Assembly: GCA_038045765.1 (NCBI GenBank)
Contig: JBBSXN010000005.1
Location: forward strand, 30,905-94,904
Direction of reading: 5' to 3'
From: Nanobdellota archaeon
GTDB lineage: Archaea > Nanobdellota > Nanobdellia > Pacearchaeales > GW2011-AR1
Length of the DNA: 64,000 nucleotides
Shown: piece after piece, positions 3,166 to 54,452 of the stretch
Position numbering within the stretch: the stretch's first letter is position 1
How the letters are laid out: each line of letters opens with the position of its first letter
Program-made: the position numbers and the translations under genes
Notes under the pieces: generated by a model
The model's input: the letters and a program-made list of their open reading frames with translations, nothing else
What the model was told of the DNA's origin: nothing
The model's database searches: none

Positions 3166-3201
3166 AGAAAAGTATAAAAGTTGAATGTATTGTTATTTTT
3201 A

Positions 3202-22218: not shown

Positions 22219-25212
22219 ATGAATAAGGTGATGTTTTTTCTTTTTGGATTTTTTTCATTCGTATTAATTATGAATTTAGTTTCAGCTGAGACTATCGTAT
22301 TTGATTATAGTAGTGCGAGTTCTTCTACTGGTGTAGTTAATAATGGAAATGGGCAATATAGTTGGACAGTACCTGCAGGTGTAACTGAGATAAGTGTTAA
22401 GATTTGGGGGGGAGGAGGAGGGGGAAGTGGAGGAGATAATTATGAAGATGGAAGCGGAGGAGGAGGAGGAGGATTAATTGTGACTACCGTTCCAGCGATT
22501 TCTGGACAAATATATGAAATTAAAGTAGGTAATTCTGGTGGAATTAATATTGATGGTGAAGAATCGTATCTGAGAAGAGGATTTAGTGTTGACATATCTG
22601 CTCAAGGTGGTGGGGGAGCTAGAATTGGTTTGAATGGGCGCGGGGCAGGAGGAAGTATATTTTCTTCCGTAGGTAATACTGGATTTACCAATTATTCTGG
22701 CGGGGATGGAGGTTTAGCTGGAGGTGCTAGTCCTTCTGGTTGTGGGGGAGGGGGAAGTGGAGGAGGGGGAAGTGGAGGATCTTCAGGTTTTGCAGATACT
22801 TGTCCTGGTAATAATGGTGCTGGTTCCGCAGTATTTGGTGGAGGTAATGGTGGGAACCATGGGTCTCCTGGATCTCTGCCTGGAGGAGGAGGAGCTGGAA
22901 GTTTACAATCTCAACCAGTAGTTTATAGAACGCCTGCTACTGCGGGCGCTCCAGGAAGAATTATTTTAACTTATACAATTAATTCAATAGTAAATCCTAT
23001 CTGTGGAAGTAATGGATGTGAGGTGGGAGAAACTCCTGCTAATTGTCCTTTAGATTGTTCATCTACTTCTTCCGAGATTAATACTTGTTCTTCACCTAAC
23101 CAGATTATCTTCTCTTTATATCAAAATAATAATTCTCATGTTGCTTTATGGAATAATGAAAGTTATAACTATAAAATATGTTATAATCAGATATTTGGTA
23201 GAGATTATGCTATGAGTAATATGCGTGTGTGTAACGGTAAAAATAGTGTTTTGAATATTAGTTCTATCGATAATGCTCATGCTGAAAAACCTTATGGATT
23301 AAATTATCCTGTTGGAATCTGTTATGGTGAAATGGCCTGTTCAGTTAGAACTGCAAGGTGCAACCCTGGTGGTGAAAAAATAGTTGTTAGATTATCTGGA
23401 GAAACAAACGCACATATATCTAATTCTAGTTTCCCTTCATATGATAATTTATTGTGCTGTTCTGAAAAACCTCTTGGATTTAATAGATTGGGTTGGAAAG
23501 ATTCTAGTGAGGTAAATTTTATTTCCAATGCTAAAAATGGAGACTCTATTTTCTTATATGCTGTAACTAATTTTACGATTGGTACAAATGTAAATTTTGA
23601 GATCTATGAAGATGATCTTGGTCCTGACGATCCTATAAGGACTGGAAGCAATAATCTTTCTGGAATTGTTGACGCTAATGGAATAGCTAAAGCCTCTTGG
23701 ACTATAACTCAAGCAGATATCGATGCTGGTGATGGTCTTGGTGAAGGTGATTTTGTAGAATTTTATTCATTTGCTAATGTTAATGGTTTCTATAATAAAA
23801 TTTCTGATGAATTAATTACTAATAAAAATAGAGATACAGTTATACCAGCGAATTGTAATATAGATATAGTTAGTGGACCTGGTAAATTAAATCATCGTGG
23901 AATTTATTTTGCAAATAAGAGCATTGAATTCAATCAAACCAGAATTAGTGAAAGTAATATAAATGTTCAGTGGGTAATTGAAGGGGAGAATGAAGCTACA
24001 ATTAGTAAAACTGAAAAGAGCTTTTTAATGAACTTTTCTAGAGCTGGGCAGAAGACAATTACTCTTAACGCTAATATTCCTGGATGTGCTGAACAAAACA
24101 GACAAGTTTCAATATTAGTTACTGATGGTCCTGGATTATTTACTTTTATTAATGCTCCATTCAATATGCAGGTGTTCAAGTTTATTGACGATAATATTAA
24201 TGTTTACTATAGTGGAAATGAAAGTTATGTTGTTAATAGTACTGGAAATGTATGTCCTACCTCGCCTACAGTTACTTGTTTAGCAGGTAATTGTCCTTTA
24301 ACAACTTCTAATGTACCTGTTGGATGTTCGGGTAATAATGTTGTTGTAACTGCTAATCCTTCTATTGATAAATTCGCTAATATTAATTTTACTTGGAGTA
24401 AAATTAAGAGAGTTGGCGAAGATATATTGACTAGAGGACATGGCATTGTAAATGCTAGCGGATATACTAATTATAATAGAGCTAATGATAGATCTAAGGC
24501 AATTGGAGACAAGCAGATAAAACTTATTGCTAATTATACTGTTGGTACGGTTAGTTTGCAGAATACTTTCTTGAGGAACTTTACACTTGGAACATGCATA
24601 AATAATGGCTATCAGAGATTGAATATTGATAGTTTGGGAAGAGTAAAAAATATTACTAATACAAGGGAAAGTGGAATTGCTTGTGGAAATTCTGGAGATG
24701 GAATCTGTTGTCCTGTTGGAGAAATTTGTGGGGCTAATGGGTGTGAAAGAACAGAGAATCCTATAACCACTTGTTCAAATTATACTCTAAGGGATTATTG
24801 CTTATCTGATCCATATAGTGCTAAAGAATTTGAATATTCTTCATTTGTTCAGAGAAATGGTTTGAGTCCAGAGTGTAATGTTAATTATAATTGTGTATGG
24901 AATCAAACTGCTTGTAACTTTAATATAACTCAAGTAGATAATTTAGGTAACTTTGGTGGAAGTTGTTTAGAAAGTGCTATTCCAGTTGTTGATAGTAGTT
25001 GTGATAATGGTGAACTGACTAAGTTAATTAATATAACTTCTACTAGTTCAGGACAACTAGCATGTTTGACTTGCCAGAGCGGTGTGTTTGAAGTTCCATG
25101 TGGAAGGCCTAGTATTGAATTGCCTTTCTTTGGAATTCAACAGATAGTGTTATCGTTAATTTCTATAATTGGAGTTTACTTATTTATGTTTAGAAGAAAG
25201 AAAGTCAATTAG
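22219..25212 (+). CDS. 997-aa surface protein: glycine-rich domain, threefold 'NAH' repeat, Ig-like region, shared Cys-rich C-terminal module with TM anchor
   Basis: Signal FFLFGFFSFVLIMNLVSAE. YSWTVPAGVTEISVKIWGGGGGGSGG...GRIILTY is the 'glycine-rich domain' pattern. Three repeats of L..x.N[AS]H...Y...[IL]C[YC] (nt 23080-23460). The C-terminal ~450 aa are paralogous to the end of 32073-36011. Confidence 0.6.
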   Translation: MNKVMFFLFGFFSFVLIMNLVSAETIVFDYSSASSSTGVVNNGNGQYSWTVPAGVTEISVKIWGGGGGGSGGDNYEDGSGGGGGGLIVTTVPAISGQIYEIKVGNSGGINIDGEESYLRRGFSVDISAQGGGGARIGLNGRGAGGSIFSSVGNTGFTNYSGGDGGLAGGASPSGCGGGGSGGGGSGGSSGFADTCPGNNGAGSAVFGGGNGGNHGSPGSLPGGGGAGSLQSQPVVYRTPATAGAPGRIILTYTINSIVNPICGSNGCEVGETPANCPLDCSSTSSEINTCSSPNQIIFSLYQNNNSHVALWNNESYNYKICYNQIFGRDYAMSNMRVCNGKNSVLNISSIDNAHAEKPYGLNYPVGICYGEMACSVRTARCNPGGEKIVVRLSGETNAHISNSSFPSYDNLLCCSEKPLGFNRLGWKDSSEVNFISNAKNGDSIFLYAVTNFTIGTNVNFEIYEDDLGPDDPIRTGSNNLSGIVDANGIAKASWTITQADIDAGDGLGEGDFVEFYSFANVNGFYNKISDELITNKNRDTVIPANCNIDIVSGPGKLNHRGIYFANKSIEFNQTRISESNINVQWVIEGENEATISKTEKSFLMNFSRAGQKTITLNANIPGCAEQNRQVSILVTDGPGLFTFINAPFNMQVFKFIDDNINVYYSGNESYVVNSTGNVCPTSPTVTCLAGNCPLTTSNVPVGCSGNNVVVTANPSIDKFANINFTWSKIKRVGEDILTRGHGIVNASGYTNYNRANDRSKAIGDKQIKLIANYTVGTVSLQNTFLRNFTLGTCINNGYQRLNIDSLGRVKNITNTRESGIACGNSGDGICCPVGEICGANGCERTENPITTCSNYTLRDYCLSDPYSAKEFEYSSFVQRNGLSPECNVNYNCVWNQTACNFNITQVDNLGNFGGSCLESAIPVVDSSCDNGELTKLINITSTSSGQLACLTCQSGVFEVPCGRPSIELPFFGIQQIVLSLISIIGVYLFMFRRKKVN
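23854..25212 (+). repeat. copy A of the 1.36-kb shared C-terminal module
   Basis: Aligns with 34647-36011. Blocks 24031-24145 and 34821-34935 are identical (115 nt). Blocks 24871-25168 and 35667-35964 differ at a single position (298 nt). The segments between them are divergent. Confidence 0.9.
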
Positions 25213-25265
25213 TTGTTACTTTATAATAGGAACAAATAGAAACATTTAAATAGTTCTTTTTATGT

Positions 25266-25544
25266 ATGAAAATAATGGAAATGAGAAGTTATGTTCCTAG
25301 AAATCTTTCAAGATATGTAGCTCCTGCTTTAGTAGCTGGTGGTTTACTTTTAGTTAGCGGATGTGCGACAACTGGAAATAATCAAAAAAATAATTTAGAT
25401 AATAAGGTAGTTTATGGTCAAAAATATAACAGTTATAAAGGTGAAGATATAAAGAAAGATAATAATAGTGGTTGGAATGGTGCTAGTAATTTTGTAGGAG
25501 ACCTTATTTTTGAAGGTTTACTTCGTGCTCTTTTCCGTCAATAA
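25266..25544 (+). CDS. small secreted protein with lipobox-like signal (LLVSGC)
   Basis: MKIMEMRSYVPRNLSRYVAPALVAGGLLLVSGCATTGNN has a positive n-region, an h-region and [LV][AS][GA]C. 92 aa. Confidence 0.4.
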   Translation: MKIMEMRSYVPRNLSRYVAPALVAGGLLLVSGCATTGNNQKNNLDNKVVYGQKYNSYKGEDIKKDNNSGWNGASNFVGDLIFEGLLRALFRQ

Positions 25545-25608
25545 TAGTTTTATTATATTTACAGAAAATTGTTAAAGTATTTAAAGGAATTATCTCTATT
25601 TTATTAGC

Positions 25609-28600
25609 ATGAGAGTTGATAAAAAAAGGGTAATAATTTATATTATATTTACATCAATTATTCTGTCTTCATTATTTTTCTTATTTCCTTCTTCTGTTGA
25701 AGCACAGGGTGCTTGCTCTCTAGGGTGTGCTTTAGGACAAATATGCCGTTCAAATATATGCACAGATATTTGTAATGATGGTACTCCAGTAGGAACTTGC
25801 TCTTTTAGAAAACCTTTATTTTGTAACCCTGATCAAAGATTAATTAATAATATAGCGCAGTGTGGTTGTCCTATAGGAAAGGTTCCTTTGCCTTCAGGAT
25901 ATTGTGGTATAAGGATAAATGAGACTTCTTTTCTTTCAGAGCATTTTGAAGCTGGAAGAGTTGAAAATCTTGATATTTTGCCTCTTCGTGCTGGTCTTCC
26001 TAATCTTGCTTCAGATGCAAGTATAAATGTAGTTGGATTTATCTGTCCTAATCCAGGAGTTAGATTGACTTCTCCTCCTAACCCTAGCGATCTTAATAAT
26101 GTTGTTATTGATTTTACCAGTTACTATGGTGTTAATGGTGAAAAAATATTGAATGATTTTATGTCTGCTCCAATCCGTCTAGATAAGTGGCTTATCAGTT
26201 CGCCTGGTAATATTTTAGATGGGAGAGAATTTATCTATCCTAGACAAAGTGAAGTATGTTATATTCCTAATAATGTTACAAGCCCATATATACAACTTGA
26301 CTTGGGTAGTATAAAATCTTTTAGTGAAGTGACTCTTTCTCTTAGTTATCCATTTATAACTGATTATCAGATTCTTTATTCAAGAGATAATACTAATTGG
26401 AATGTTGCATATACTGGACATGATGAATTAAGTTTAAAAAATACATATACTGATTACTGGAGCTTTGGAACTTATGGGTCAAATGATTTGGGGTACACTA
26501 AAGTACATAGAGACTTAAAAACTAGGGGAGCAATATCTTTCCAAACTGAGATTGGAGGTATAAATTATCAAACTCATCAATTTAGTCATAGTTTTAATCC
26601 TGTTTCTGGACGTTATGTTAGATTTGTTCCTAAAAATTGGTTTGAAAGAGCAGGAGTATATGAAATAGAAATACGCAATCCTGATTCACAATTGCAGTTG
26701 AAAACTAAATGGGATAATGCTATTCAGAAAACTAGATATTTACCTAATGGTTCATATGAATCTCCTGTACTTTTTGCTAATGTCTCTCCTGCAGATCTTT
26801 CTTATCAAAAAATATCTTGGAATTTAGGAAGTAATCAGTTTGCTGATAAAAATATATTAAGAAATGCTGGTCTTGATGTTCCTGAATATGGTTTTATACA
26901 ATTTGATACTGGGAATGTTAATGATTTTTATACATCTACACGTCTTAGTAATGACTTAAGTGATAGAAGCTATGGTTATCCTGGAAACGCTGGTAATGGA
27001 AATATTGGAGGTTCTCCAAATGCTGGTGCAGTGCCTTTAACATTAGCAAATAGACCTAATGATATTTGGGGTGGTAGCATAGCTAATAATGCTCAGTTAA
27101 CTAATCAGGGAATAGGTAATAGCGCCCTTTCTCTGGATGGTGTTGATGATTATGCATTTGCTACTGCTGATCCTTTACTTAGATTAGAAGATAATTTTAC
27201 AATAAGTGCTTGGGTGAAACCTGAAAATGGAGGACCTGTGTTATCTAAAGGTACTGGAAATGGTGTTACGACAGATTATTCTTTTGCAGTTACTACCTTT
27301 GGAATGCAAGGTCAAATAGGCTTCTTTGTAAGAGGACAATTATATCAAACTCCTGCTGATTTATCTATTGATAGTAATTGGCATCATGTTATTGTAACTT
27401 ATGAAAAACCTGGGACATTAAAATTTTATTTAGATAATGCTCTTGTTTATACTGATAATACTGTAAATGGGAATTACGCCGCTGTGCCTTATAACAATCC
27501 GTATTCTGAATATTATAGTGAGACTCTAACTTGGGAAGATTCATTTCTTGTTGGTGCTCATGGAAGATCTGGTGTGACTCCATTTAAAGGTAAGATTGAT
27601 GAGATTATGATCTACGATAGATCTCTTTCTCTTTCAGAGATACAACAAATTAGAAGCTTACAAGTGCCTAAATTAAATGTTGCTGGTGCAGTTGGGAATT
27701 TGCCAGACAATTTGAACAAACTTCTTCTTGCTTACTGGGATTTTTCAGGTTCAGTTATTCCTAGCACTTATAAACCGTACCAGTATTGGACTTCGTATAC
27801 AACAAGTAGATGGAATAATGGAAATAAAATACCTAATAGAGTCGCTCCGCAATATTCTCAAATTTTAAGTGGTAGTTATCCGGAAGCAGGACATGCTAAT
27901 GTTGCTTATGGCGGTCCAAAATGTGCATTCGATGATAAATGGGCTGGACAGCTAACTAGTAGCGGTGGTGTTCCTAATTTACCTTGTGTCTATCATCCTG
28001 CAGAAGCTGCTTTTCAAAAACCTGGCTATGAAGGTACTGTTTCCTGGGCTTTGGATACAAGTAGTCATAGACTAGATTTAGGAGTTGCTTTTGGTGCAAA
28101 TACTACTAGTGATTCTGTTAAAGGGAGAGCTTTAATTCTGGATGGAGTTGATGATTATCTTTCAAGACCTTTTCCACCACTTTTTCTTACTCAAAGTGGA
28201 GAAGTTAATCATCTTAATATCGGAACTGGAGATTTCTCAGGTTCAGTTTGGATTAAAGATCCATCTGTCCAATGGTCAGGAGTATTTTCCAAAGGTAGAG
28301 GTAATCCAGGGTTTGATGGTCTTCTTTCTGGTGCTTATGATTTATTTGTTAGTCGTAATGGCGATTCTGCAGGAGTTGCTTTTAGAATTATTGACGCAAA
28401 TAGAAATGTCCGAATTGTTGAAACAAGTTATAGTGGTGCTAGTCAGTGGCATCATATCTCTTTCACTCTTAATAGGGCTAGTCAAGAAATGAAAATATAT
28501 GTAGATGGAAATCTTGCAAGCACATATACGGGAGGTATTTCTACTGCTTCAATGGTTAATAATTATCCTTTTGTTATTGGCGCTCAGCAATTTATGCAAG

Positions 28601-30840
28601 AAGATCTTCCAATGCATACAAATTATGCTGGTAAAATTGATGAGCTTAGATTATATGGAAGAATGTTAAGTGTGAGCGAGATTCAACAGCTTGCAAATGA
28701 AAGAACCTCTCCTGTGCAGGCAGGCACAGATATTGGTCTTAAGGGATTTTGGAAATTTGATGAATCAGATTATGTTTACTTTCCTAAAGATATAAGTGTT
28801 GCACATGGAATTAGATTTGTCTTGCCTGCTGGATCTAGTTTTGATAGAGTTGCTATAAGTGAACTTCAAGATAGAATCTCTTATATTGATCTTAGAGGTA
28901 TTATTACTCTTGCTAAGGAACCTACTGGAAACTATAATACTGTAACTGTTTTTGATTTACCACAAAGACAAACTGCTGAAGCAGGAGGCGAATGGTACAC
29001 TATTTTATTATATACTAGAGTTGTTCCAGGATTACACGAAAGAACTCCATTAGTTTGGGAAATTGGATTATTAGAAACTGCTAATGCTGGTTCTTTACCT
29101 CCAGTTAATTTTGGAGATTTACACGCTAAATTTCAGTTTAGATCTGGAGATAGTGAAAGTGCTGTCTTGAGTGCTCCGTGGACTGGATCTGATGGGACTA
29201 GTGCAACATTTTATGATTCCTCTGGTCAGGCAATTAATTCTATTCATAATGGTAATTCTTATTATCAGTATAGATTTATAGCTTCTACAGAAGATAATAG
29301 ATATACTCCTGTTGTTGATAATGTTACAGTCACTTATGCTGGGAAGATAAATTTAGCCCCTAGGGCTTATATAAAAAATCCTGGGAAAATTTTTACATTT
29401 GAGAATACTGAATTTGATGCATCATTAAGTAGAGATGATGCATTTATTGAAAGATACGACTGGGATTTCGGAGATGGAACAGTTGCTTCTGGAGGAAATG
29501 AAGTTAAAAGAACCAATCATCAATATTCATCTCCTGGAGAATATACTGTTCATCTTACAGTTTATGATTCTGCTGGATTTTCTGGAGAAACTTATCTTAC
29601 TGTTAATGTTGATCCCTTTGACTGCATGACTCCAGATACAGTTGGAAATGCAGATACTGAAATTTTTGGAGCTATATCTGGTTCAAATGTAGAAGAAATG
29701 GTAGGTAATGCTCTTATTGAATATGCTGAAAAACACGATATGGTTAGTATAGCCTCTATTGACACTTCTGAAGAATATATGGATGCTGCACTTGAATATC
29801 TTGAAGAGCATATGAGTTATCTTACTCCTAGACGACAATGTTTTGAAACTCATGGAGGATTACCTCGCTGGCCGGTCTCACTTGATAGAATTACGGACGT
29901 TACACCTCAATGTGGATGTCCTGAAGGAGCTGATTTCTGTGGTAATTGTCAAGACTTCTCTATTGCTTATACTACTCTAGTAAGGGCGATGGGTGTAAAT
30001 AGTAAATGTGTGTATAGTGCAATTACTGAATCAATATTACCATTTCAAACTAAAGGTACTCATGCATATAATGTTATTTTGTATAAGGGTAAATATAGAA
30101 TGGTAGAACCTCAAGGGAATAGTTTAACTTCCAAATTTAGAATAAACAGCTTAGAATGGTCTAATGGGGAATTGCCTTATTATTTGACGGGCTCTATCTC
30201 TAATGATCAAATAGGTAGACAGGAAGATGGTGCTTTGCCTATAACAACAAGACAAACAATACTTGCTTCTAAGATTAAAAACTATCCAGGATCTACGGGA
30301 CTTCCAGATTCTGGAAGAAGATGTGTACCTGCAGGATATTTGAATCTTAGCACTGAAACTCAAAGATTAAATTTTGTTGCTCAGCAAATGTATTTGTTAA
30401 CTTATGTTTATAATTCTGCAGAATATGAAGCAGCTCCTGATAAATGCACTTATTCTGTTAATTTTAATTTAAGAAAGATATTGGGCAGGGCACCTACAAC
30501 TAGTGAAATTGGAAGATTTGAAACTTGTACAAGCACAGGAAATGGGATAAAATGGAATGAATATAATAGGTATATGAGTGAAATTGATTTTAAGAATACA
30601 TTTAAACAATCTTTTACTTTATTTGCTACTGGTGCTAATGGTGATTTTATGGCTATAAATGAAAATATATTTTTAGAAAAACTTTACGCGTATTTAATGG
30701 GTTTTCCAATTACTGATACTGTTAATCAGAATAAAGAAGATCTTGCTAGAGGATGGCATAGAGATACTAAGTATTCTTTCTATAGATCTTTCTATTCAGG
30801 TTATGATCCTTTGGAGGTGTTTGAAGATGTTTGTCCGTAA
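25609..30840 (+). CDS. 1743-aa secreted multidomain protein: Cys-rich N-module, discoidin (F5/8C)-like, 2x LamG, PKD, C-terminal transglutaminase-like core
   Basis: Signal IIFTSIILSSLFFLFPSSVEAQ. YIQLDLGSIKSF...YQILYSRDNTNW...GRYVRFVP..YEIEI (discoidin, about 26170-26680). LSLDGVDDYAF...WHHVIVTY...GKIDEIMIYDRSLS (about 27100-27660) and LILDGVDDYLS...WHHISFTL...GKIDELRLYGRMLS (about 28110-28700) are LamG. YDWDFGDGT...GEYTVHLTVYDSAG (PKD, about 29380-29615). GNCQDFSIAYTTLVRAMGV...THAYNVILYKGKYRMVEPQ (transglutaminase-like Cys/His core, about 29900-30120). No C-terminal TM. Confidence 0.7.
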   Translation: MRVDKKRVIIYIIFTSIILSSLFFLFPSSVEAQGACSLGCALGQICRSNICTDICNDGTPVGTCSFRKPLFCNPDQRLINNIAQCGCPIGKVPLPSGYCGIRINETSFLSEHFEAGRVENLDILPLRAGLPNLASDASINVVGFICPNPGVRLTSPPNPSDLNNVVIDFTSYYGVNGEKILNDFMSAPIRLDKWLISSPGNILDGREFIYPRQSEVCYIPNNVTSPYIQLDLGSIKSFSEVTLSLSYPFITDYQILYSRDNTNWNVAYTGHDELSLKNTYTDYWSFGTYGSNDLGYTKVHRDLKTRGAISFQTEIGGINYQTHQFSHSFNPVSGRYVRFVPKNWFERAGVYEIEIRNPDSQLQLKTKWDNAIQKTRYLPNGSYESPVLFANVSPADLSYQKISWNLGSNQFADKNILRNAGLDVPEYGFIQFDTGNVNDFYTSTRLSNDLSDRSYGYPGNAGNGNIGGSPNAGAVPLTLANRPNDIWGGSIANNAQLTNQGIGNSALSLDGVDDYAFATADPLLRLEDNFTISAWVKPENGGPVLSKGTGNGVTTDYSFAVTTFGMQGQIGFFVRGQLYQTPADLSIDSNWHHVIVTYEKPGTLKFYLDNALVYTDNTVNGNYAAVPYNNPYSEYYSETLTWEDSFLVGAHGRSGVTPFKGKIDEIMIYDRSLSLSEIQQIRSLQVPKLNVAGAVGNLPDNLNKLLLAYWDFSGSVIPSTYKPYQYWTSYTTSRWNNGNKIPNRVAPQYSQILSGSYPEAGHANVAYGGPKCAFDDKWAGQLTSSGGVPNLPCVYHPAEAAFQKPGYEGTVSWALDTSSHRLDLGVAFGANTTSDSVKGRALILDGVDDYLSRPFPPLFLTQSGEVNHLNIGTGDFSGSVWIKDPSVQWSGVFSKGRGNPGFDGLLSGAYDLFVSRNGDSAGVAFRIIDANRNVRIVETSYSGASQWHHISFTLNRASQEMKIYVDGNLASTYTGGISTASMVNNYPFVIGAQQFMQEDLPMHTNYAGKIDELRLYGRMLSVSEIQQLANERTSPVQAGTDIGLKGFWKFDESDYVYFPKDISVAHGIRFVLPAGSSFDRVAISELQDRISYIDLRGIITLAKEPTGNYNTVTVFDLPQRQTAEAGGEWYTILLYTRVVPGLHERTPLVWEIGLLETANAGSLPPVNFGDLHAKFQFRSGDSESAVLSAPWTGSDGTSATFYDSSGQAINSIHNGNSYYQYRFIASTEDNRYTPVVDNVTVTYAGKINLAPRAYIKNPGKIFTFENTEFDASLSRDDAFIERYDWDFGDGTVASGGNEVKRTNHQYSSPGEYTVHLTVYDSAGFSGETYLTVNVDPFDCMTPDTVGNADTEIFGAISGSNVEEMVGNALIEYAEKHDMVSIASIDTSEEYMDAALEYLEEHMSYLTPRRQCFETHGGLPRWPVSLDRITDVTPQCGCPEGADFCGNCQDFSIAYTTLVRAMGVNSKCVYSAITESILPFQTKGTHAYNVILYKGKYRMVEPQGNSLTSKFRINSLEWSNGELPYYLTGSISNDQIGRQEDGALPITTRQTILASKIKNYPGSTGLPDSGRRCVPAGYLNLSTETQRLNFVAQQMYLLTYVYNSAEYEAAPDKCTYSVNFNLRKILGRAPTTSEIGRFETCTSTGNGIKWNEYNRYMSEIDFKNTFKQSFTLFATGANGDFMAINENIFLEKLYAYLMGFPITDTVNQNKEDLARGWHRDTKYSFYRSFYSGYDPLEVFEDVCP

Positions 30841-32086
30841 TTTTATTTTAACTTTTATTTTTGCTTTGGCGTTTATGAGTTTCTCTACTTCAGCCGTTTC
30901 ATATTATAATGGAAATGTGAGTGTAGAACAGATTATAGGATATACTCTCATTAATGATACTCAATCTGCACAAGTAGTTATGTCATATGCTTTAAAAAAT
31001 TCAGGTAGCTCTTCTACACAAATAACTATATCATTTCCAGGTTTTCCAGATGATGCGAAATATAATGTTTCTGAAACAAGAGGAAGAGATTTGAGAATTA
31101 ATCTTCCTGTTGGTGTTACAAATGTTCTTGTGTCTTTCAATCAGGATTTTGACTCTTCTTCAAAACTATCTTTAAGTCCTGGATATCGTTTGGATGATAA
31201 ATTACCTGTAAATAAAGTTTTACAACAGCAATATACTTTTGAATTAAAATCTAATGAAATTTCTTTGCTTTCGAGTGAACCTGAGATTGCTGCTGTTGGG
31301 GGAAAGATATATAATTTTATTGCGAGCAATTCCTATACTCAAAAACTAAGAATAGAAATAGTTAGTAAAAATTTACAAGCTTATGCTTATAGAACGGTTA
31401 GTGCATATAGTCAAGTTGGAGATATAATTAATCTTGCTACTACTGTAATTAATACTGGTAGCGCTCCTTTAGATGGTTTAAGTTTAGAAGATAGTATCTT
31501 TGCAACTTATTTTGAGCCAGTTTCTTCAGGATTCACTTCTTATGCTCCTCAAGAAGCAAGTGAACCTTTGTATATCTACTCTGCTTCATTGCCTACTCTC
31601 TCTCCTGGAGAAAATCATACTATTAATTATTCTGTTAAAGTTATAAGAATGGGAAGTCTTCCATTTACTGGCGCTAGAATATTGTATAAAGGAAATTTCT
31701 TAACTTCTACAGATGCTAGCGAACCAATAATATTCCCATTACAAGTTGCTCAGCAAATAAATCCTGTTAATGTAAGTAATGCTCAAGCTAGTGTGAAAGA
31801 AGAAATTTTACCTCCGAGGGAAGATTTTCTAAATGATACAATTCCTCCTGGAGAACAACCACCAATATTCAGACCTGAAGAAAAGGAAATGTTCTTTCAA
31901 CAAGTGGAAAAAGAAAATAAGAGTGAAAATATATTCATGATAATTATAATTTTATTTATGGTATTATTACTTTCTCTAGGATATTTTGCTTGGCATAGGT
32001 ATAAAGAGATTATAATGGAAAGTTTTTCAGATTTGGATTTATCATCACTAAAATTCTGGGAGAAAAATCAAAATGAAAAAGAATAA
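30827..32086 (+). CDS. 419-aa anchored surface protein (DUF11/CARDB-like region), translationally coupled to the 1743-aa gene
   Basis: Start moved to ATG 30827 (MFVRNFILTFIFALAFMSFSTSAVS), overlapping the upstream stop by 14 nt. GDIINLATTVINTGSAPLDGLSLEDS is DUF11/CARDB-like. C-terminal TM IFMIIIILFMVLLLSLGYFAW plus a tail. Confidence 0.5.
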   Translation: MFVRNFILTFIFALAFMSFSTSAVSYYNGNVSVEQIIGYTLINDTQSAQVVMSYALKNSGSSSTQITISFPGFPDDAKYNVSETRGRDLRINLPVGVTNVLVSFNQDFDSSSKLSLSPGYRLDDKLPVNKVLQQQYTFELKSNEISLLSSEPEIAAVGGKIYNFIASNSYTQKLRIEIVSKNLQAYAYRTVSAYSQVGDIINLATTVINTGSAPLDGLSLEDSIFATYFEPVSSGFTSYAPQEASEPLYIYSASLPTLSPGENHTINYSVKVIRMGSLPFTGARILYKGNFLTSTDASEPIIFPLQVAQQINPVNVSNAQASVKEEILPPREDFLNDTIPPGEQPPIFRPEEKEMFFQQVEKENKSENIFMIIIILFMVLLLSLGYFAWHRYKEIIMESFSDLDLSSLKFWEKNQNEKE

Positions 32087-35000
32087 TTTATATAATCAGA
32101 TAATTGCCTTTCTTTTTATTTTTCTTTTATTAAGTTCTAATGTTTATGCAAGTGTTTTCCAAGGTTCATCTGATAATGACAATGGGGGTATGAATGAGGC
32201 TGGAGGAGATAATCTTCCACCAGATACTAGCGATTCTAGTTCTGAACCTGTTTACGCTCAGCCAGATCCTGTTATAGAAGCGATTGCTATTGCTGCCCAG
32301 GCTGCTGGAGATTCTCATGTTAGTGCGGAAACTGTGGAAGCGGCTACTGCTGCTGTGGAAGCAGCTATTGCAGAAGCAGTTAGTTCTGGAGCATCTGAAC
32401 AAGTTGCTCAAGAAGCGGCTATCGCTGCTGCTAGAGTAATTATTGAAGGAGGTAGTAGTGTTGAGGCTGCACAAGTTGCAAGTGCGATAATTACAAGCGA
32501 TACTTCTGTTGCTGATAATGATAATCGTCCTACAGCAGATACTAATCAACAAGGGCGTGCTGAAGCAACATCTACTGCAAATCAGGTACAAGTAAATACA
32601 GATAAAAGTGATTCTGAACAGGCTAAACAAGCTACAAAAGGAATTAAAGAAAGAACAAATCAAGAGATTAGAAATAAATTAGCAGAAGGAGATCCAGATG
32701 CTAAAAAAACTTTAATACAAAGAGCAGTAGAATTTTTTAAAAATATTCCTAAGAGAGTTGCTCAAGCTGCTAGAGATGCCGTTATGCTACCAGTTAATAT
32801 TGTCAATGCAATTCGTGCAGGTGATTGGGGGGAAGTTGCTAGATTAGTAACTACTACTGCTGTTACTGTTGCTGGGCTTTTGCTTGGCGCTCCTCCAGGT
32901 CTTACAACGGCTGTTAATGAACTAATAAATCGAGTTGTGGATCAAAATAGAAATTTCAATAATATATTTCCCAACGGAGTTCCCCCATTAGATGTAAGTA
33001 CATTAAGTCCTGCTGCTGCTGAAGCCCTTGCTAATAAACTGAGGTCTGATGGTAATACTGTTCAAGTTCATACTGAAACTATTATCAATAATCGTGGTGA
33101 AACTCAAATAGTTGTTACAAGTATTCAAATTATTGGTGCTGGGGAAGGTGAAAGTAGAAGCACTCAAGTAAATATTAATGGTATAACTCATACAGTTACT
33201 ATTTCTGGTGATGGGACTGGAGTGAGTGTAAGTGCTCCTAGCCAACATCCCGAAGTGAATTTTCTTCAACCTGGTTGGGATTTTGGTGCATTCTCTCCAT
33301 TGATTGCTCCTGTTTGCGGTGATGGAAATATTGTTTTACCTGAGCAGTGTGAGATTGCTGATATTTCAGAAATATTAAGTAATCCTAGTTGTCCTAACCC
33401 TCTTACTTGTTCTGGTCGTTTAACTGCAGTGGTGCCTCCATTCGCAGCATGTATTGATACATGTCAGTGTCTTTATGATGTTCCTTCTGTTGACGATTGG
33501 CAATATATTGTGGATAGTTGTGGAGCAGAGTGCAATGCTACTAATACTATTAATTGTCTTGCAGGAGAAGTCTGTAGTAATGGTGAATGTACTACTAGTA
33601 ACTTCTGTGGAAATGGAGTTGTTGATATTGTACAAGGAGAAGAATGTGATACTGGATTGGGAGCCGTTCTTTCTTGTGCCATAGGTGAAATTTGTAATAG
33701 CTGTCAATGTATTTCTGTAACTACTAATTGTAATGATGGAATGCAGCAAGTAGGTGAAGTTTGTGATACTGGAATTCCTAGTCAGAGAATTAGATTTACT
33801 CCTCCCGTTGCTGGTAATATTGGAATCTGTAGAGCTGCTTGTGAAGATTGTATTTGTTCTGGTGGAACAAGTAATTATGGTCATATTGGGACTCCGACTT
33901 CTGGACAGATAGGTGTTGGTCCTGCACTTGGTGGTGAAGCTTGTCAAGCTAAAAATTTAGATGGAAATTATGATTTGGCTAGGGATGAAGATTGCGATGG
34001 TGGAATTGATGAAGGATGTGCGTGTGCTGTTGGAGATACTAGGGCTTGTGGAGAAAGAGGTGGTGCTTGTGGAATTGGTGGAACTCAAACATGCGTCTTA
34101 GATGCAACTTTAGGAGAAGGAAGATGGGGTGTTTGCACAGGAACTTACCAGCCTCAAAATGAAATTTGTAATGGTATAGATGATGATTGCGATTTAGAAG
34201 TAGATGAATGTGGTTGTCAAAACTTTTTCTATTTCAATAGAGCATTTTGGGAAAGTTATGATGGGCTTAGTTTTAGTCCAGTTTCTACCGTGTCAGTAAA
34301 TAATACTGTCTATTTGACTGTTGATACTAATTTAACTTATGGTGCGCCTGTTAATTTAACTATATATGAATCTGATTGTTCTAGCGGGAATTTATTTGCT
34401 ACGAGCTGTTCTCAAAAAGTAGCTGGATTGAATACTACTATAACCAACAGTTTAACAAAAATAGGAAAGATTGACTGGAATGTTAGTGATCAGGTTATTG
34501 CTTCTACAAGCGGTGCTGCTCCTGGAGGGATAGCTGATGGATTGTTGAATAGAACTTTCTTCTTTATTGCTAATACTAGTGGTCAGACAATAACTAGTAG
34601 TATGTTATTTGTTGATTTGATTAATATTATAACTCCTCCTGGAAGTTGCAATATAGATATCGTTACTGGTGTTGGTAAGTTAAATCATCGTGGAATTTAT
34701 TTCGCAAATAAGAGTATTGAATTCAATCAGAGTAGAGTTGGAGAAAATGTAAATGTTCAGTGGGTAATTGAAGGAGAAAATGAACCTATTGTAAATAAAA
34801 ATGAAAAGAGTTTTGTAATGAACTTTTCTAGAGCTGGGCAGAAGACAATTACTCTTAACGCTAATATTCCTGGATGTGCTGAACAAAACAGACAAGTTTC
34901 AATATTAGTTACTGATGGTCCTGGATTATTTACTTATATTAATGCACCATTCCATAAGCAAGTGTTCAAGTTTGCTACTGATACTATTAGTGTTAATTAT

Positions 35001-36011
35001 AGGGGTAATGAAAGTTATGTTATACAAAGTTCTGGAAGTAGTTGCCCTACTACTTTGCCTACGGTTACTTGTCTAGCTGGAAATTGTCCTAGTTCTACTT
35101 CTAATGTACCTGTAAGTTGTTCTGGTAATGGAATTACTTTAACTAATACATTAACTGGCGATAAATTTACAAATATTAATTTTAGCTGGAGTAGAAAAAT
35201 TAATGGGAATGAAAGAGTATTCAATTATGGAAATGGAAGTGCAAATGCAAGTGGGAGTATAAATTATAACCGAGCTAATGATAAATCAAATGCAATTGGT
35301 GATAAGCAGATAAAACTTATTGCTAATTATACTGTTGGTGTAATTAGTTTACAGAATACTTTCTTGAGGAACTTTACACTTGGAACTTGTATTGCGAACG
35401 GTTATCAGAGATTAAATGTCGATAGTTTGGGAAGAGTAAAAAATATTACTAATACGAGAGAAAGTGGAATTGCTTGTGGTAATTCTGGAGGAGATGGATT
35501 CTGCTGTCCTGTTGGAGAAATTTGTGGAACTAATGGATGTATACAAATAGAAAACCCTATAACCACATGTTCGAATTATACTTTAAGAGATGATTGCTTA
35601 TCTGATCCATATAGTGCTAAAGAATTTGAATATTCTTCATTTGCTCAAAGAAACGGTTTAAGTCCAGAGTGTAATGTTAATTACAATTGTGTATGGAATC
35701 AAACTGCTTGTAACTTTAATATAACTCAAGTAGATAATTTAGGTAACTTTGGTGGAAGTTGTTTAGAAAGTGCTATTCCAGTTGTTGATAGTAGTTGTGA
35801 TAATGGTGAACTGACTAAGTTAATTAATATAACTTCTACTAGTTCAGGACAACTAGCATGTTTGACTTGCCAGAGCGGTGTGTTTGAAGTTCCATGTGGA
35901 AGGCCTAGTATTGAATTGCCTTTCTTTGGAATTCAACAGATAGTGTTATCGTTAATTTCTATAACTGGGTTGTATTTGTTCCTATTTAGACGAAGGGTGT
36001 TTAGAAAATAA
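32073..36011 (+). CDS. 1312-aa surface protein: Ala-rich helical N-region, Myxococcus-type Cys-rich repeats, MopE-like metal-binding motifs, shared C-terminal module with TM anchor
   Basis: Signal IIAFLFIFLLLSSNVYAS. Ala-rich EAIAIAAQAAG...AAVEAAIAEAV (about 32265-32520). CGDGNIVLPEQCE, CGNGVVDIVQGEECDTG and CNDGMQQVGEVCDTG (about 33300-33900). DEDCDGGIDEGC and EICNGIDDDCDLEVDEC (about 33975-34212). The start overlaps the upstream gene by 14 nt. Confidence 0.6.
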   Translation: MKKNNLYNQIIAFLFIFLLLSSNVYASVFQGSSDNDNGGMNEAGGDNLPPDTSDSSSEPVYAQPDPVIEAIAIAAQAAGDSHVSAETVEAATAAVEAAIAEAVSSGASEQVAQEAAIAAARVIIEGGSSVEAAQVASAIITSDTSVADNDNRPTADTNQQGRAEATSTANQVQVNTDKSDSEQAKQATKGIKERTNQEIRNKLAEGDPDAKKTLIQRAVEFFKNIPKRVAQAARDAVMLPVNIVNAIRAGDWGEVARLVTTTAVTVAGLLLGAPPGLTTAVNELINRVVDQNRNFNNIFPNGVPPLDVSTLSPAAAEALANKLRSDGNTVQVHTETIINNRGETQIVVTSIQIIGAGEGESRSTQVNINGITHTVTISGDGTGVSVSAPSQHPEVNFLQPGWDFGAFSPLIAPVCGDGNIVLPEQCEIADISEILSNPSCPNPLTCSGRLTAVVPPFAACIDTCQCLYDVPSVDDWQYIVDSCGAECNATNTINCLAGEVCSNGECTTSNFCGNGVVDIVQGEECDTGLGAVLSCAIGEICNSCQCISVTTNCNDGMQQVGEVCDTGIPSQRIRFTPPVAGNIGICRAACEDCICSGGTSNYGHIGTPTSGQIGVGPALGGEACQAKNLDGNYDLARDEDCDGGIDEGCACAVGDTRACGERGGACGIGGTQTCVLDATLGEGRWGVCTGTYQPQNEICNGIDDDCDLEVDECGCQNFFYFNRAFWESYDGLSFSPVSTVSVNNTVYLTVDTNLTYGAPVNLTIYESDCSSGNLFATSCSQKVAGLNTTITNSLTKIGKIDWNVSDQVIASTSGAAPGGIADGLLNRTFFFIANTSGQTITSSMLFVDLINIITPPGSCNIDIVTGVGKLNHRGIYFANKSIEFNQSRVGENVNVQWVIEGENEPIVNKNEKSFVMNFSRAGQKTITLNANIPGCAEQNRQVSILVTDGPGLFTYINAPFHKQVFKFATDTISVNYRGNESYVIQSSGSSCPTTLPTVTCLAGNCPSSTSNVPVSCSGNGITLTNTLTGDKFTNINFSWSRKINGNERVFNYGNGSANASGSINYNRANDKSNAIGDKQIKLIANYTVGVISLQNTFLRNFTLGTCIANGYQRLNVDSLGRVKNITNTRESGIACGNSGGDGFCCPVGEICGTNGCIQIENPITTCSNYTLRDDCLSDPYSAKEFEYSSFAQRNGLSPECNVNYNCVWNQTACNFNITQVDNLGNFGGSCLESAIPVVDSSCDNGELTKLINITSTSSGQLACLTCQSGVFEVPCGRPSIELPFFGIQQIVLSLISITGLYLFLFRRRVFRK
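34647..36011 (+). repeat. copy B of the 1.36-kb shared C-terminal module
   Basis: See copy A (23854-25212). The mosaic of identical and divergent blocks was read directly from both copies. Confidence 0.9.
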
Positions 36012-42622: not shown

Positions 42623-42697
42623 GTTTAAGTGATAAAAATAGGGTATTTAAATGTTTCTCTTGTTGTAACTATGTAATAAGAACAATAGCAGTAATTG

Positions 42698-43621
42698 CTA
42701 GTTAATCAAATAAACAATTCCCAGTGCTATGAAACATCCTGCTGAGATAAATGGCATGGCTGGGTAGAACTTGCCTTTTTCTGAATAGTGGAATAATATG
42801 GCAAGTGCTACGGTTGCTCCTAAAGATATTATTATTGCTGAAAGCAAGCCGAATACATTCAATACTGCTCCTGCAAGTATAATTGGGAATATAACATCTC
42901 CTCCGCCCAGTATTGCTACGCTCATTTTTATCTTCTTGTTCTTTAATTTTGATTTCTTTGCTTTTTCTAAAGCAATTTTATCTTTTGGTAAAAGATATGG
43001 GATGAAGAAACCTGAAAATACCTTTACTTGATTTATCTGATATTTAGCCATTTTCTGCATAAACTTTGCGTGCCAGACTGCATACATGTCATATATTGAA
43101 ATTAAAATAAGTAATGAGACTGTTGTCCAAATATTTAGAAGAGGAACAAATATGGCTGCTATTCCTGGATAAATAAGAAGTTCAGTTATATTATGTAAGA
43201 GAATATCTCTTTGAAAGACTTTTAGATAAGCCAAAGGAATAGCTATAATTACTGAAATTATTAGAGCATAGTTTGTAAATCCTAAAAGGCCTGCATTTAA
43301 AGTCAAAATTAAAGCAATTATTATTACTAAAAAGAACCAGAATCTTAATATTAATTCTGCTTTAAAATTCATTAGAATAAGCATTATTACTATTGCAAAG
43401 AAAAAGGCAATTACTATTGAAAGAATATTTGCTTTAGGATTTGTGTCTTGTGGTGGTTCTAAGCCAAGAGGTAAATTGTATGATGTTTGATTTACCGCGG
43501 TTCCATTTATTTCTATCTGTGTGACTTCTGGTGAATAAACTCCTACAACAAAAAGACCTATGAATTGTGCAACTAAAAACATACCAAGCAGAATAAGAGT
43601 TATTTTAATAGAGTGCTTCAC
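42698..43621 (-). CDS. presenilin/signal-peptide-peptidase homolog (GxGD intramembrane aspartyl protease, A22 family)
   Basis: ISIYDMYAVW (YD), ILGGGDVIFPI (GxGD), YPAMPFISAG (PAL-like). About 9 hydrophobic helices. GTG start at 43621; an internal ATG alternative exists. Confidence 0.7.
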   Translation of the reverse strand: MKHSIKITLILLGMFLVAQFIGLFVVGVYSPEVTQIEINGTAVNQTSYNLPLGLEPPQDTNPKANILSIVIAFFFAIVIMLILMNFKAELILRFWFFLVIIIALILTLNAGLLGFTNYALIISVIIAIPLAYLKVFQRDILLHNITELLIYPGIAAIFVPLLNIWTTVSLLILISIYDMYAVWHAKFMQKMAKYQINQVKVFSGFFIPYLLPKDKIALEKAKKSKLKNKKIKMSVAILGGGDVIFPIILAGAVLNVFGLLSAIIISLGATVALAILFHYSEKGKFYPAMPFISAGCFIALGIVYLIN

Positions 43622-54190: not shown

Positions 54191-54452
54191 ATGTAGATGG
54201 GGAGATTGCCTGGTTTTCATATGGCAGTTGATCTCGAGTCATTCTCGGCTTTGCAACCCTGTAAGCACCATACTTCCTGCTTAGGGCTGCTCCGATCAAG
54301 GCCTGACCCATTTCACAAGAGTACGATCGAACAGGACAAAGCGTCAACGTTTGATACGAGACTGCAATATGTCTGCCTCACGCACTCCTTTAAGCTCCGC
54401 CATAAAGCCCGTTTGCGGATTGCATGGGGCTAGCATGCAAGCTCTTCTACAT
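54191..54452 (-). ncRNA. signal recognition particle RNA (7S/SRP RNA), ~262 nt
   Basis: GC-rich island in AT-rich DNA. The minus strand reads ...GGGUCAGGCCUUGAUCGGAGCAGCCCUAAGCAGG..., matching the helix-8 core (UCAGGNCC-loop-GGNAGCAGCC-AAGGCAG). Terminal helix AUGUAGA/UCUACAU. Alu-type hairpin loops AGCCC and GGGCU are complementary. TATA lies ~20 nt upstream and T5 follows the 3' end. Confidence 0.75.

Follow-up and report, generated by a model that had tools for sequence, protein, structure and literature searches.

The lifestyle assumed for DPANN archaea is one of attachment to host cells, and little is known about the proteins involved or about their evolution. In Helicobacter pylori, babA/babB(/babC) are full-length, expressed paralogs that encode outer-membrane adhesins at separate loci, with highly similar ends and a diverged ligand-binding part. 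These genes undergo general homologous recombination and non-reciprocal conversion, giving mosaics among strains without silent cassettes. Neisseria pilE/pilS, Borrelia vlsE and Mycoplasma genitalium MgPa are organized differently, with one expression site served by many promoterless partial donors; it is the exposed region that is varied, and dedicated cis elements are often used.

In Plasmodium falciparum, the neighbouring paralogs DBLMSP and DBLMSP2 encode merozoite surface antigens with very high diversity against a genome background of low diversity, and the part of the account cited here attributes this diversity to gene conversion between the paralogs (PMC10919680). For Nanobdella aerobiophila, TM-anchored, N-glycosylated proteins rich in Ig folds (signal peptide, 4-5 Ig/PKD-like folds, 13-17 sequons, C-terminal TM) were proposed as S-layer or stalk-type proteins (bioRxiv 10.1101/2023.10.27.564410). 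That archaeal machinery is efficient in gene conversion is indicated by the cited part of work on the polyploid Haloferax volcanii, in which conversion equalises the chromosome copies (PMC11276520).

Here we analysed a 64-kb stretch of DNA, referred to as the window, in which two genes, A and D, end in a common 1.36-kb 3' module with 85.9% nucleotide identity (Table 1). We attribute the patchwork of identical and diverged stretches within this module to ectopic gene conversion between two old tandem paralogs, and not to the swapping of cassettes or heads, a reading to which we assign a probability of roughly 0.85. Both genes are complete ORFs, each with a signal peptide; the genes, first described as giant, are large (997 and 1312 aa) but not giant. 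The module, described at the same time as Cys-rich, has 22 cysteines in ~452 aa (4.9%).

Table 1. Genes and sub-features of the A/D locus, in window coordinates.
Feature	Position	Strand	Description
Gene A	22219..25212	+	997 aa, from the ORF list; = MEK6910811.1 (AABW82_03480, Nanoarchaeota MAG) by exact look-up; signal peptide, Gly_rich_2 head (aa 44-252), three 'TNAH' repeats (aa ~291-414), Ig-like domain (aa 415-545), shared module ending in C-terminal TM anchor
A Gly_rich_2 head			Pfam PF21722, E=1.9e-12
A Ig-like domain	23461..23853	+	Never converted; 26% aa identity to that of D, 83% nt identity to the L022 ortholog
A shared 3' module	23854..25212	+	PKD-like domain, three more beta-sandwich domains, Cys-rich segment, LPFFG motif, TM helix, basic tail
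A identical block 1	24026..24145	+	120 nt, dS=0; recent conversion tract; C-terminal half of PKD-like domain
A domain 3	24146..24480	+	aa 643-754, 'CLAGNCP' domain; fast-evolving, paralog-specific
A identical block 2	24889..25168	+	280 nt, dS=0; last beta-sandwich domain, LPFFG motif, first half of TM helix
A unconverted 3' edge	25169..25212	+	End of TM helix, basic tail, stop codon; paralog-specific in both strains
Gene B	25609..30840	+	1743 aa; between A and D; secreted; LamG x2, F5/8-C, PKD
Gene C	30827..32086	+	419 aa as called in strain contigs; signal peptide, C-terminal TM
Gene D	32073..36011	+	1312 aa; = MEK6910815.1 (AABW82_03500); signal peptide, Ala-rich region, Cys-rich repeats, Ig-like domain (34233-34646), shared module
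D shared 3' module	34647..36011	+	
D identical block 1	34816..34935	+	
D domain 3	34936..35273	+	Paralog-specific; only 3.8% difference between two strains
D identical block 2	35685..35964	+	
Gene E	36060..38729	+	889 aa, PKD-containing membrane protein

Gene B, whose transglutaminase-like match is weak and sub-threshold, is missing from the single-copy loci of other genomes. Because gene C overlaps the stop of B and the start of D, genes B, C and D probably form one operon. Downstream of the family gene, gene E is a conserved neighbour at every related locus and marks a syntenic slot, in which other genomes have one family gene, flanked by an archaeal type IV pilus operon and by gene E. Residues 291-997 of A align end to end with a 745-aa homolog (P0001). 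The heads of A and D had been called unrelated, which is correct for the heads but not for the Ig-like domains adjoining the module, which are homologous. A 'Myxococcus repeat' proposed for D was confirmed by no HMM, the sole match being MopE-like and sub-threshold.

BLASTN aligned the two modules over 23853-25198 and 34646-35994 at 86.3% identity with 8 gap openings, and their codon alignment contains 191 differences over 1356 aligned nt. The earlier note had reported that 24031-24145 equals 34821-34935 exactly and that 24871-25168 differs from 35667-35964 at one position; both observations hold, and the first exact run is in fact 120 nt long (block 1). The heavy divergence with indels that it described between the blocks was recovered by sliding-window identity at 24146-24480, the most diverged stretch of the module (55-77% nt identity per 60-nt window). 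The longest identical run, the 280 nt of block 2, exceeds anything obtained by permutation (mean 38, maximum 92; p<5e-5), so that identity is clustered and divergence along the alignment is not uniform. Synonymous sites behave in the same way: synonymous identity extends over as many as 92 consecutive codons (permutation mean 26, maximum 75), and synonymous differences affect 1 of 136 codons within the blocks versus 58 of 234 outside. In both blocks dS is 0, versus 0.45-0.71 across the remaining module, and the blocks contain 92 and 41 consecutive degenerate codons free of synonymous differences, against a rate of ~25% elsewhere. As synonymous sites are identical too, constraint on the protein cannot give the identity of the blocks. 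Thus, the patchiness is far beyond chance and cannot be explained by protein-level selection alone. The first mismatch past block 2 in D (C at 35965) is specific to the window; every other assembly has T at this position, the same as A.

The diverged patch, which corresponds to domain 3, might be read as DNA that is older or has escaped recombination. Its dS (0.55-0.64) is the same as in the module remainder and dN alone is high (0.20-0.48), with dN/dS of ~0.9 at 24301-24450. With dS ordinary and only dN raised, the patch is a single fast-evolving, paralog-specific domain and not an unconverted relic. The domain 3 alleles of gene A in the window and in a second strain from the same groundwater population, strain 16, differ by 22% nt, and site patterns across 24146-24480 are paralog-specific at 58 sites versus 2 and 4 for the other two topologies. 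No conversion of domain 3 was seen in the window and strain-16 lineages, and its protein sequence evolves fast.

Diversity-generating retroelements have been reported in DPANN archaea, and the dN/dS of the patch, near 0.9, could suggest that such an element, or another form of targeted hypermutation, acts on it. We consider this exceedingly improbable, given that a reverse transcriptase was not found among the window ORFs scanned, that the mismatches are not specific to adenine (A accounts for 30/98 and 38/98 on the two sides, and substitutions of every one of the twelve classes occur), and that the patch has indels and a dS as high as elsewhere.

Comparison within the Hainich groundwater population revealed that tract extents vary by strain. 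An independent assembly from another sample (L017) reproduced the identical blocks, with 2 differences in 23.9 kb. In strain 16 (L016), A_16 and D_16 are identical over 545 nt (24628-25172) and block 1 is not identical (6/120 differences), while D_16 is identical to the window's A over 266 nt (23857-24122). We classified four-sequence site patterns using A and D of the window and of strain 16. Sites upstream of 23854 are exclusively paralog-type (42 sites, 0 for other topologies), those at 23854-24025 exclusively cross-type (13 and 0), and those at 24146-24627 overwhelmingly paralog-type (73, versus 2 genome-type and 4 cross-type). At 24628-25168 there are 5 genome-type and 0 paralog-type sites, and the tail (25169-25212) returns to paralog-type (16, with 0 for other topologies). 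The favoured pattern thus switches from paralog to cross, paralog, genome and again paralog type by region, with almost no conflict within any region, and the tract pattern appears to be polymorphic among co-occurring strains.

The strains are otherwise 0-0.8% diverged, versus 8-28% in gene A and 5% in the module of D. The dS between the window's A (A_w) and A_16 is 0.4-0.6, and gene A seems to have been additionally exchanged between strains as a whole divergent allele. Judging from four sequences only, transfer in the two strain-16 tracts would have run from A to D.

Mosaics of this kind might also be produced during assembly by repeat collapse, bubble-popping or chimeric strain consensus. 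All sequences come from metagenomes assembled from short reads, two at 7-8x coverage, in which variant phasing across the identical blocks rests on assembler output, and one assembly, from a replicate sample, ended exactly at the start of the 545-nt repeat. We nevertheless regard an artefact as very unlikely. The window pattern recurs in the independent L017 assembly, with two more places reported as similar, and the conversion pattern is likewise seen in the L016 and L018 assemblies; bubble merging may remove a few SNPs but cannot make contrasts of 15% versus 0%. Furthermore, the swapped segments adjoin unique head sequence with <25 nt between diagnostic sites; for a swap, the assembler would have had to change path at points with only ~11-20 nt common to the copies, so that misassembly is unlikely. 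The same architecture is also present in L014 and L012, which come from unrelated samples.

The lineage L022, ~74% identical to the window in nt sequence, shares its A-B-C-D gene order. In the Ig-like region, A-A and D-D identities to L022 are 83 and 82%, versus 42-52% for A-D. In the 5' part of the module, A and D are 84-88% identical within a genome versus 69-73% between the window lineage and L022, and in block 1 the values are 95-100% within and 87-88% between, for a comparison that took in the first 555 nt of D's module only. Heads thus group by orthology (82-83%) and the module groups by genome. This pattern indicates that the duplication predates the split from L022 and that the module has since undergone concerted evolution. 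Together with the tracts of zero dS and their strain-specific extents, it bears out the earlier claim of ongoing recombination between A and D.

One recent partial duplication, or a lone conversion event, with uneven divergence afterwards, no ongoing recombination and blocks that are simply under strong constraint, would fit the roughly uniform dS outside the blocks (as expected of one older event over the whole module) and the fact that block 1 is also the best-conserved part of the family. However, block 2 lies within the least-conserved part of the family and is only 81% identical to its L022 ortholog, and runs of degenerate codons without any synonymous difference, tract extents that vary by strain and modules that group by genome despite a gene order older than the L022 split all argue against one event. 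We therefore consider it highly improbable and retain repeated conversion as the preferred explanation.

Conversion between A and D seems to be confined by stable boundaries. The 26% aa identity of their Ig-like domains is within the range for homologs from different genomes (17-41%), and A/D identity rises to 86-95% from aa 546 on. Since the adjoining upstream Ig-like domain is homologous yet so diverged, 23854/34647 represents a recombination boundary inside homologous sequence. An AlphaFold model (pLDDT 88.6) consists of a TM helix and beta-sandwich domains arranged as a chain; residues 1-121 fold into one such sandwich, and confidence dips to pLDDT 66-72 at residues 121-140 (aa 535-554 of A), where the 5' boundary falls. 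The boundary is thus predicted to lie in the interdomain linker between the Ig-like and PKD-like domains. Neither A nor D had a Pfam PKD match (PF00801/PF18911) at E<=0.01; in homologs P0001-P0005, precomputed annotation places PF18911/PF00801 at the aligned position, where the model shows a beta-sandwich. Foldseek against the PDB returned only generic multi-beta-sandwich matches (complement C3 and alpha-2-macroglobulin MG domains, Ig-domain adhesion molecules; TM ~0.18), nothing function-specific.

Under the gene conversion reading, homologous recombination between direct copies 10.8 kb apart repeatedly copies stretches of one 3' module onto the other. Transfer is non-reciprocal, with concerted evolution as its net effect, and stays between the Ig-like/PKD-like linker and a point ~25-45 nt before the stop, where A/D homology runs out. 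The outcome is a pair of proteins with distinct outer parts (heads, Ig-like domains and domain 3) on a near-common membrane-proximal stalk and anchor. The recombination is probably carried out by the general archaeal machinery and not by a dedicated system. The boundaries could be held partly mechanically, in that conversion requires flanking identity and very diverged DNA blocks it, and may also be under selection for a common stalk with distinct ligand-facing parts.

The earlier note had inferred a constant stalk with variable exposed parts, and this survives insofar as the stalk is homogenised and the N-terminal parts are independent; its suggestions of a typical surface-variation design and of cassette-like head swapping are not supported. 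Programmed antigenic variation, in which donor cassettes are supplied by A and D or by unseen silent copies and a dedicated mechanism swaps heads or exposed segments onto a constant anchor, is in our view very unlikely. In its favour, the alternation of identical and diverged blocks is genuine and is polymorphic in one population, and diversifying pressure is plausible given the surface location. In addition, a 39-nt patch with 16 substitutions in L018 (GGAGCTGGTGAATTGTCATGTTTGAATTGTCAATCGGGA) does not derive from any donor found; this patch and a third haplotype of A_16 (at 23854-24025) suggest that there are further donors. On the other hand, the window contains two copies of the module, both in full-length genes with signal peptides, and a search for additional copies, as proposed earlier, detected no further full, partial or diverged copy in the 64 kb at the DNA or protein level (blastn and tblastn). 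No Pfam match to a reverse transcriptase, integrase, invertase or transposase, and no recombinase, was found among the 45 window ORFs scanned. Across lineages, heads and Ig-like domains follow orthology strictly, as does all sequence upstream of 23854, and are never exchanged: each head stays with its own gene in the window, in two related A-B-C-D lineages and in the L014 tandem pair. Moreover, it is the conserved membrane-proximal part that is exchanged and the fastest-evolving domain that is left unconverted, the opposite of a variation cassette.

In L014 and L012, which belong to an unrelated DPANN lineage, two tandem genes, one with a short head and the other with a long one, have 1605 nt in common at 99.25% identity, from the start of the PKD domain to 22 nt before the stop, boundaries equivalent to those of A and D. 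We considered whether this pair and A/D go back to a common duplication; bit scores of the Ig-like domains show no A~c1 / D~c2 pairing, and the L014 pair was treated as independent for this reason. In L014, the unit is divided between a head protein and an anchor protein that is secreted separately. Conversion is not a general property of the family, since two paralogs located 195 kb apart in another genome (L002p and L004p) are 37-44% identical in all regions, without homogenisation.

A and D belong to a family of uncharacterised DPANN surface proteins, with 1030 representatives in a profile search at E<=1e-30; a word-indexed protein search with the module gave only 5 distant matches, the window's own proteins not among them, and under-represents the family. 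Scans of genome and metagenome contigs with the family alignment detected no relative above 35% identity; the close strains were identified by exact cluster and contig look-ups. The layout of the family is a signal peptide, a variable head, Ig-like and PKD-like domains, further beta-sandwich or Cys-rich domains, CGxPxxxLPFFG, a TM helix and a basic tail. The CG[RK]P..[EA]LPFFG motif, TM and basic tail are kept in 62 family members. A known archaeosortase/exosortase-type C-terminal sorting signal was rejected, as NCBIfam signal models (PGF-CTERM, PEF-CTERM and others) did not match six tails even at E<=10. The A and D modules have 14 N-glycosylation sequons, ~5 beta-sandwich domains and a C-terminal TM helix. 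A and D are probably glycosylated, membrane-anchored adhesins or envelope proteins. In the literature searched, we found no description of this family, nor of gene conversion in DPANN surface proteins.

The high divergence among strains, the slot beside type IV pilus genes and the domain-level boundaries conserved across lineages make the A/D locus a concrete candidate determinant of host or virus interaction. A more speculative idea, which we put forward tentatively and consider possible but doubtful, is that tandem pairs with different heads and a common stalk are a selected, recurrent DPANN design in an envelope or adhesin family associated with the pilus locus, in which conversion keeps the stalk while the outer parts diversify. 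The independent origin of the L014 pair, its equivalent boundaries and its split into head and anchor fit this idea without proving it. If it were true, the shared stalk would have to fit one common envelope partner and be kept by conversion delimited at domain boundaries, the heads, Ig-like domain and domain 3 would diversify and be shuffled as alleles within populations, and it would be mainly this locus that determines the specificity of interactions with hosts or viruses.

Among the known systems, babA/babB resemble A/D in being full-length paralogs with mosaics formed by non-reciprocal conversion and no silent cassettes. They differ in encoding bacterial outer-membrane beta-barrels, in which chimeras switch the function of the expressed adhesin, whereas A and D lie in tandem, 10.8 kb apart, with the stalk and anchor converted and the ligand-facing parts not exchanged. 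With pilE/pilS, vlsE and MgPa, the A/D pair has in common the segmental, non-reciprocal transfer that creates mosaic surface-protein genes; those systems rely on silent donors and exchange of the exposed part, neither of which was seen for A/D within the 64-kb window. The A/D modules resemble the Nanobdella aerobiophila proteins in architecture, and that study does not describe conversion between paralogs (bioRxiv 10.1101/2023.10.27.564410). Going by the part of the Haloferax volcanii work cited above, conversion there acts on the same locus on different chromosome copies and not on tandem paralogs. As far as the cited part of the DBLMSP/DBLMSP2 account goes, those genes differ from A/D in belonging to a sexual eukaryote, in being under immune selection and in their unrelated folds; the parallel lies in the A_w and A_16 alleles and in the identity of D_16 with A_w on a background of 0-0.8% divergence. 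Overall, the process is a textbook one known elsewhere, and the value of A/D lies in the case and the family and not in a new mechanism: a clean natural case in which an uncultivated archaeon with a tiny genome displays gene conversion and concerted evolution, and an unusually well documented instance in a DPANN archaeon from groundwater.

Genes A and D, identical to MEK6910811.1 and MEK6910815.1 from a Nanoarchaeota MAG, lie 10.8 kb apart on the same strand and have in common a 3' module of patchy identity. Over this module (23853-25198 versus 34646-35994) the copies are 86.3% identical by BLASTN, with 191 differences among 1356 aligned nt in a codon-aware alignment. The sequence comparison agrees with the earlier note that 24031-24145 equals 34821-34935 exactly and that 24871-25168 and 35667-35964 carry a single mismatch; the exact runs extend to 120 nt (24026-24145 and 34816-34935, block 1) and 280 nt (24889-25168 and 35685-35964, block 2). 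No run beyond 92 nt arose in any of 20,000 permutations, for which the mean longest run was 38 nt. At degenerate codons encoding the same amino acid, the copies disagree in 1 of 136 cases within the two blocks versus 58 of 234 elsewhere, and the longest run of synonymously identical codons is 92, against a permutation maximum of 75. The patchy identity is real, and protein-level constraint cannot account for the mosaic. All sequences compared are assemblies.

Both blocks have a dS of 0, versus 0.45-0.71 in the rest of the module (Nei-Gojobori). The intervening stretch, previously described as heavily diverged, is indeed so, but is not older DNA: its dS is ordinary (0.55-0.64, within the range of the rest of the module) and dN alone is raised (0.20-0.48; dN/dS ~0.9 at 24301-24450). 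It coincides with one entire beta-sandwich domain (domain 3, A aa 643-754), a fast-evolving one. Nucleotide identity in this domain is 70-77% for every pair among the window, L016 (a second strain) and L022 (a relative), without grouping, except for the D copies of the window and L016 (96%). DGR-type mutagenesis was excluded because the substitution spectrum of the stretch shows no adenine specificity.

Directly upstream of the module, the Ig-like domains of A and D are homologous and 26% identical, no closer than those of family members from different genomes (17-41%), whereas the domains that follow are 86% and 95% identical. The switch, at 23854/34647, maps to a low-confidence Ig-like/PKD-like linker (AlphaFold model residues 121-140). 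Given such a step within homologous sequence, A and D are old paralogs whose 3' parts were overwritten, and a recent whole-gene duplication is rejected.

Hainich groundwater (0.1-um fraction) is the source of the related contigs. An independent assembly, L017 (well H43), matches the window at all but 2 of 23,939 positions; these two mismatches fall at the 3' ends of A and D. Divergence of L016 from the window is tabulated by segment, together with four-sequence site patterns (A and D of both strains) classed as paralog-type (P), genome-type (G) or cross-type (X).

Genes A and D, with segment-wise comparisons to strain L016 and to the relative L022
Feature or comparison	Position	Strand	Length or value
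ORF A	22219-25212	+	997 aa
ORF D	32073-36011	+	1312 aa
L016 (well H41) vs window, flanking genes			0-0.8% divergence
L016 vs window, A head	22219-23088		28.5% divergence
L016 vs window, A TNAH + Ig-like			8.8% divergence
L016 vs window, A module			8.2% divergence
L016 vs window, D module			5.1% divergence
L016 vs window, D Ig-like			0.2% divergence
Site patterns P:G:X	upstream of 23854		42:0:0
Site patterns P:G:X	23854-24025		0:0:13
Site patterns P:G:X	24146-24480		58:2:4
Site patterns P:G:X	24481-24627		15:0:0
Site patterns P:G:X	24628-25168		0:5:0
Site patterns P:G:X, module tail			16:0:0
Window lineage vs L022, Ig-like, A-A			83% nt
Window lineage vs L022, Ig-like, D-D			82% nt
Ig-like, A-D			42-52% nt
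Module 5' part, A-D within one genome			84-88% nt
Module 5' part, any between-lineage pair			69-73% nt
Block 1, A-D within one genome			95-100% nt
Block 1, between lineages			87-88% nt

Within L016, A and D are identical over 545 nt (24628-25172) and differ at 6 of 120 positions in block 1. Its D equals the window's A over 266 nt (23857-24122), where window D and L016 A are each 13-15% different; misassembly is an unlikely origin of this swapped segment, since diagnostic sites lie <25 nt from unique head sequence. L018, a replicate-sample contig of this strain (H41_R2), has an assembly break exactly where the 545-nt repeat begins. Compared with L016 over 7.2 kb, it carries 16 substitutions, every one inside a single 39-nt patch of D (L018 418-456, window-A coordinates 25045-25083) with perfect identity on both flanks; several of these substitutions are synonymous. 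Their confinement to the patch implies a putative short conversion tract and a further donor beyond the copies compared.

The head of A (L016 129-1010) also differs by indels, and its divergence beside near-identical intergenic flanks (0/79 and 1/396 different) indicates a sharp-edged allelic replacement of the whole gene. A signal-peptide-peptidase gene (42623-43621), 6.1% divergent between strains with an adjoining 478-nt indel and neighbours at 0-0.1%, appears to be another local hotspot of recombination or import.

L022 (SXGU01039785.1), about 74% identical to the window at the nucleotide level, has the order A, 87-aa ORF, B, C, D, and its D module could be compared over the first 555 nt only. 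By the tabulated identities, the A/D duplication is older than the split of the two lineages, and the modules were homogenised separately in each with an identical 5' boundary. The strain-specific tracts and this within-genome grouping of modules uphold the earlier proposal of ongoing recombination that keeps stalk and anchor alike.

These patterns are best explained by gene conversion: the tandem paralogs repeatedly undergo non-reciprocal homologous recombination, which results in concerted evolution. Conversion is limited 5' by very diverged sequence and 3' by the end of homology, skips domain 3, and is overlain by exchange of entire gene A alleles among strains. General recombination machinery presumably carries it out, and selection favouring a shared stalk may be at work, beyond what an identity threshold would impose mechanically. 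A cassette or head-swapping surface-variation system, as the earlier note read the locus, is not supported: the 64-kb window holds no silent or partial module copies at the DNA or protein level, no recombinase, transposase or reverse transcriptase was found among the window ORFs scanned, and in the lineages compared heads stay with their own gene.

A second tandem pair, in an unrelated DPANN lineage (L014, Ga0209501_10000067), occupies the same slot as in the window, with one short-headed and one long-headed copy. These have 1605 nt in common at 99.25%, the central 1393 nt being identical; the common stretch opens several codons upstream of PKD and closes 22 nt short of the stop. Cross-lineage Ig-like orthology with A and D was not found, which argues for a separate origin of this pair. 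L012, from another sample, has the same arrangement, its contig ending 223 nt into the second repeat. Dispersed paralogs 195 kb apart in one other genome (L002 and L004) show no homogenisation. Each unit in this lineage is divided between two ORFs (L014 1810-7649, L012 9917-14346). The first encodes a head protein of 521 or 776 aa that lacks an anchor, and the second a 309/311-aa Cys-rich anchor protein carrying a separate signal peptide, which suggests that head and stalk/anchor may work as separate subunits.

The window (G+C 32%) carries archaeal markers (PCNA, primase small subunit, Mre11/Rad50-like genes, proteasome subunit, FttA, TrmB-family regulators, OapB, OapC, archaeal-type CCA-adding enzyme) and an archaeal type IV pilus operon at 14.1-19.5 kb (pilin, T2SSE ATPase, two T2SSF genes). 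Among these clearly archaeal genes, Rfam reports 'Bacteria_small_SRP' at 54246-54343 (-) with 40.5 bits against a gathering score of 40; this is either an SRP RNA of reduced or unusual form or a marginal false positive. Three ORFs of 450, 505 and 442 aa (3181-6047 and 43712-45040), two of them adjacent, have a C-terminal PEP-utilising-enzyme mobile domain as their sole Pfam match.

Loci L001, L002, L003, L019 and L021 from other family genomes carry pilus genes, an opposite-strand FmrO-like methyltransferase, a few small ORFs, one family gene and a homolog of the downstream gene E, followed, where the contig is long enough, by GTPase, OapB and OapC; L019 additionally has Archease and RtcB between the pilus genes and the family gene. 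That slot is occupied in the window by A-B-C-D, and B and C, without counterpart at these loci, are confined to lineages with the A-B-C-D order. Lying between the paralogs (25609-32086), B (1743 aa) has two LamG domains, F5/8-C, PKD and a weak sub-threshold transglutaminase-like match, and C (419 aa) a C-terminal TM helix. The stop and start codons of B, C and D overlap one another, making co-transcription probable. The single Gly_rich_2-headed family gene immediately upstream of the E homolog in L021 (8001-13828) is either ancestral or what an A x D crossover would leave after deleting B and C.

The head of A, noted earlier as glycine-rich, matches Gly_rich_2 (PF21722); for D, whose head was described as Ala-rich with Myxococcus repeats, the sole domain match is MopE-like and sub-threshold. 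Pfam and NCBIfam gave no match in the shared module. A aa 291-997 aligns full length with 745-790-aa DPANN proteins (e.g., P0001 and P0002) ordered as signal peptide, three 'TNAH' repeats, Ig-like, PKD, Cys-rich region, CGxPxxxLPFFG, TM helix and basic tail, which D aa 741-1312 matches from the Ig-like domain to the end. A profile search recovered 1030 representatives at E<=1e-30, and >150 are nearly full-length with diverse head lengths. For A aa 415-997, AlphaFold (62-sequence input alignment; pLDDT 88.6, pTM 0.73) predicts a beta-sandwich chain, a short helical stretch rich in Cys, and a TM helix at the end; Foldseek returned only generic multi-beta-sandwich matches. The CG[RK]P..[EA]LPFFG motif, TM helix and basic tail (25120-25212, 35916-36011) are kept across 62 aligned family members and match none of the curated NCBIfam sorting-signal models, and so may be a candidate undescribed archaeal sorting or anchoring signal.

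The mechanism is thus ordinary and well supported, the organism unusual and the family uncharacterised. An adhesin or envelope function of A and D seems plausible. Proposed surface proteins of Nanobdella are Ig-fold-rich, glycosylated and C-terminally anchored (bioRxiv 10.1101/2023.10.27.564410), and the A/D family resembles them in its Ig-like folds, its sequons (14 N-glycosylation sequons in the module, alongside 22 Cys) and its C-terminal anchor.
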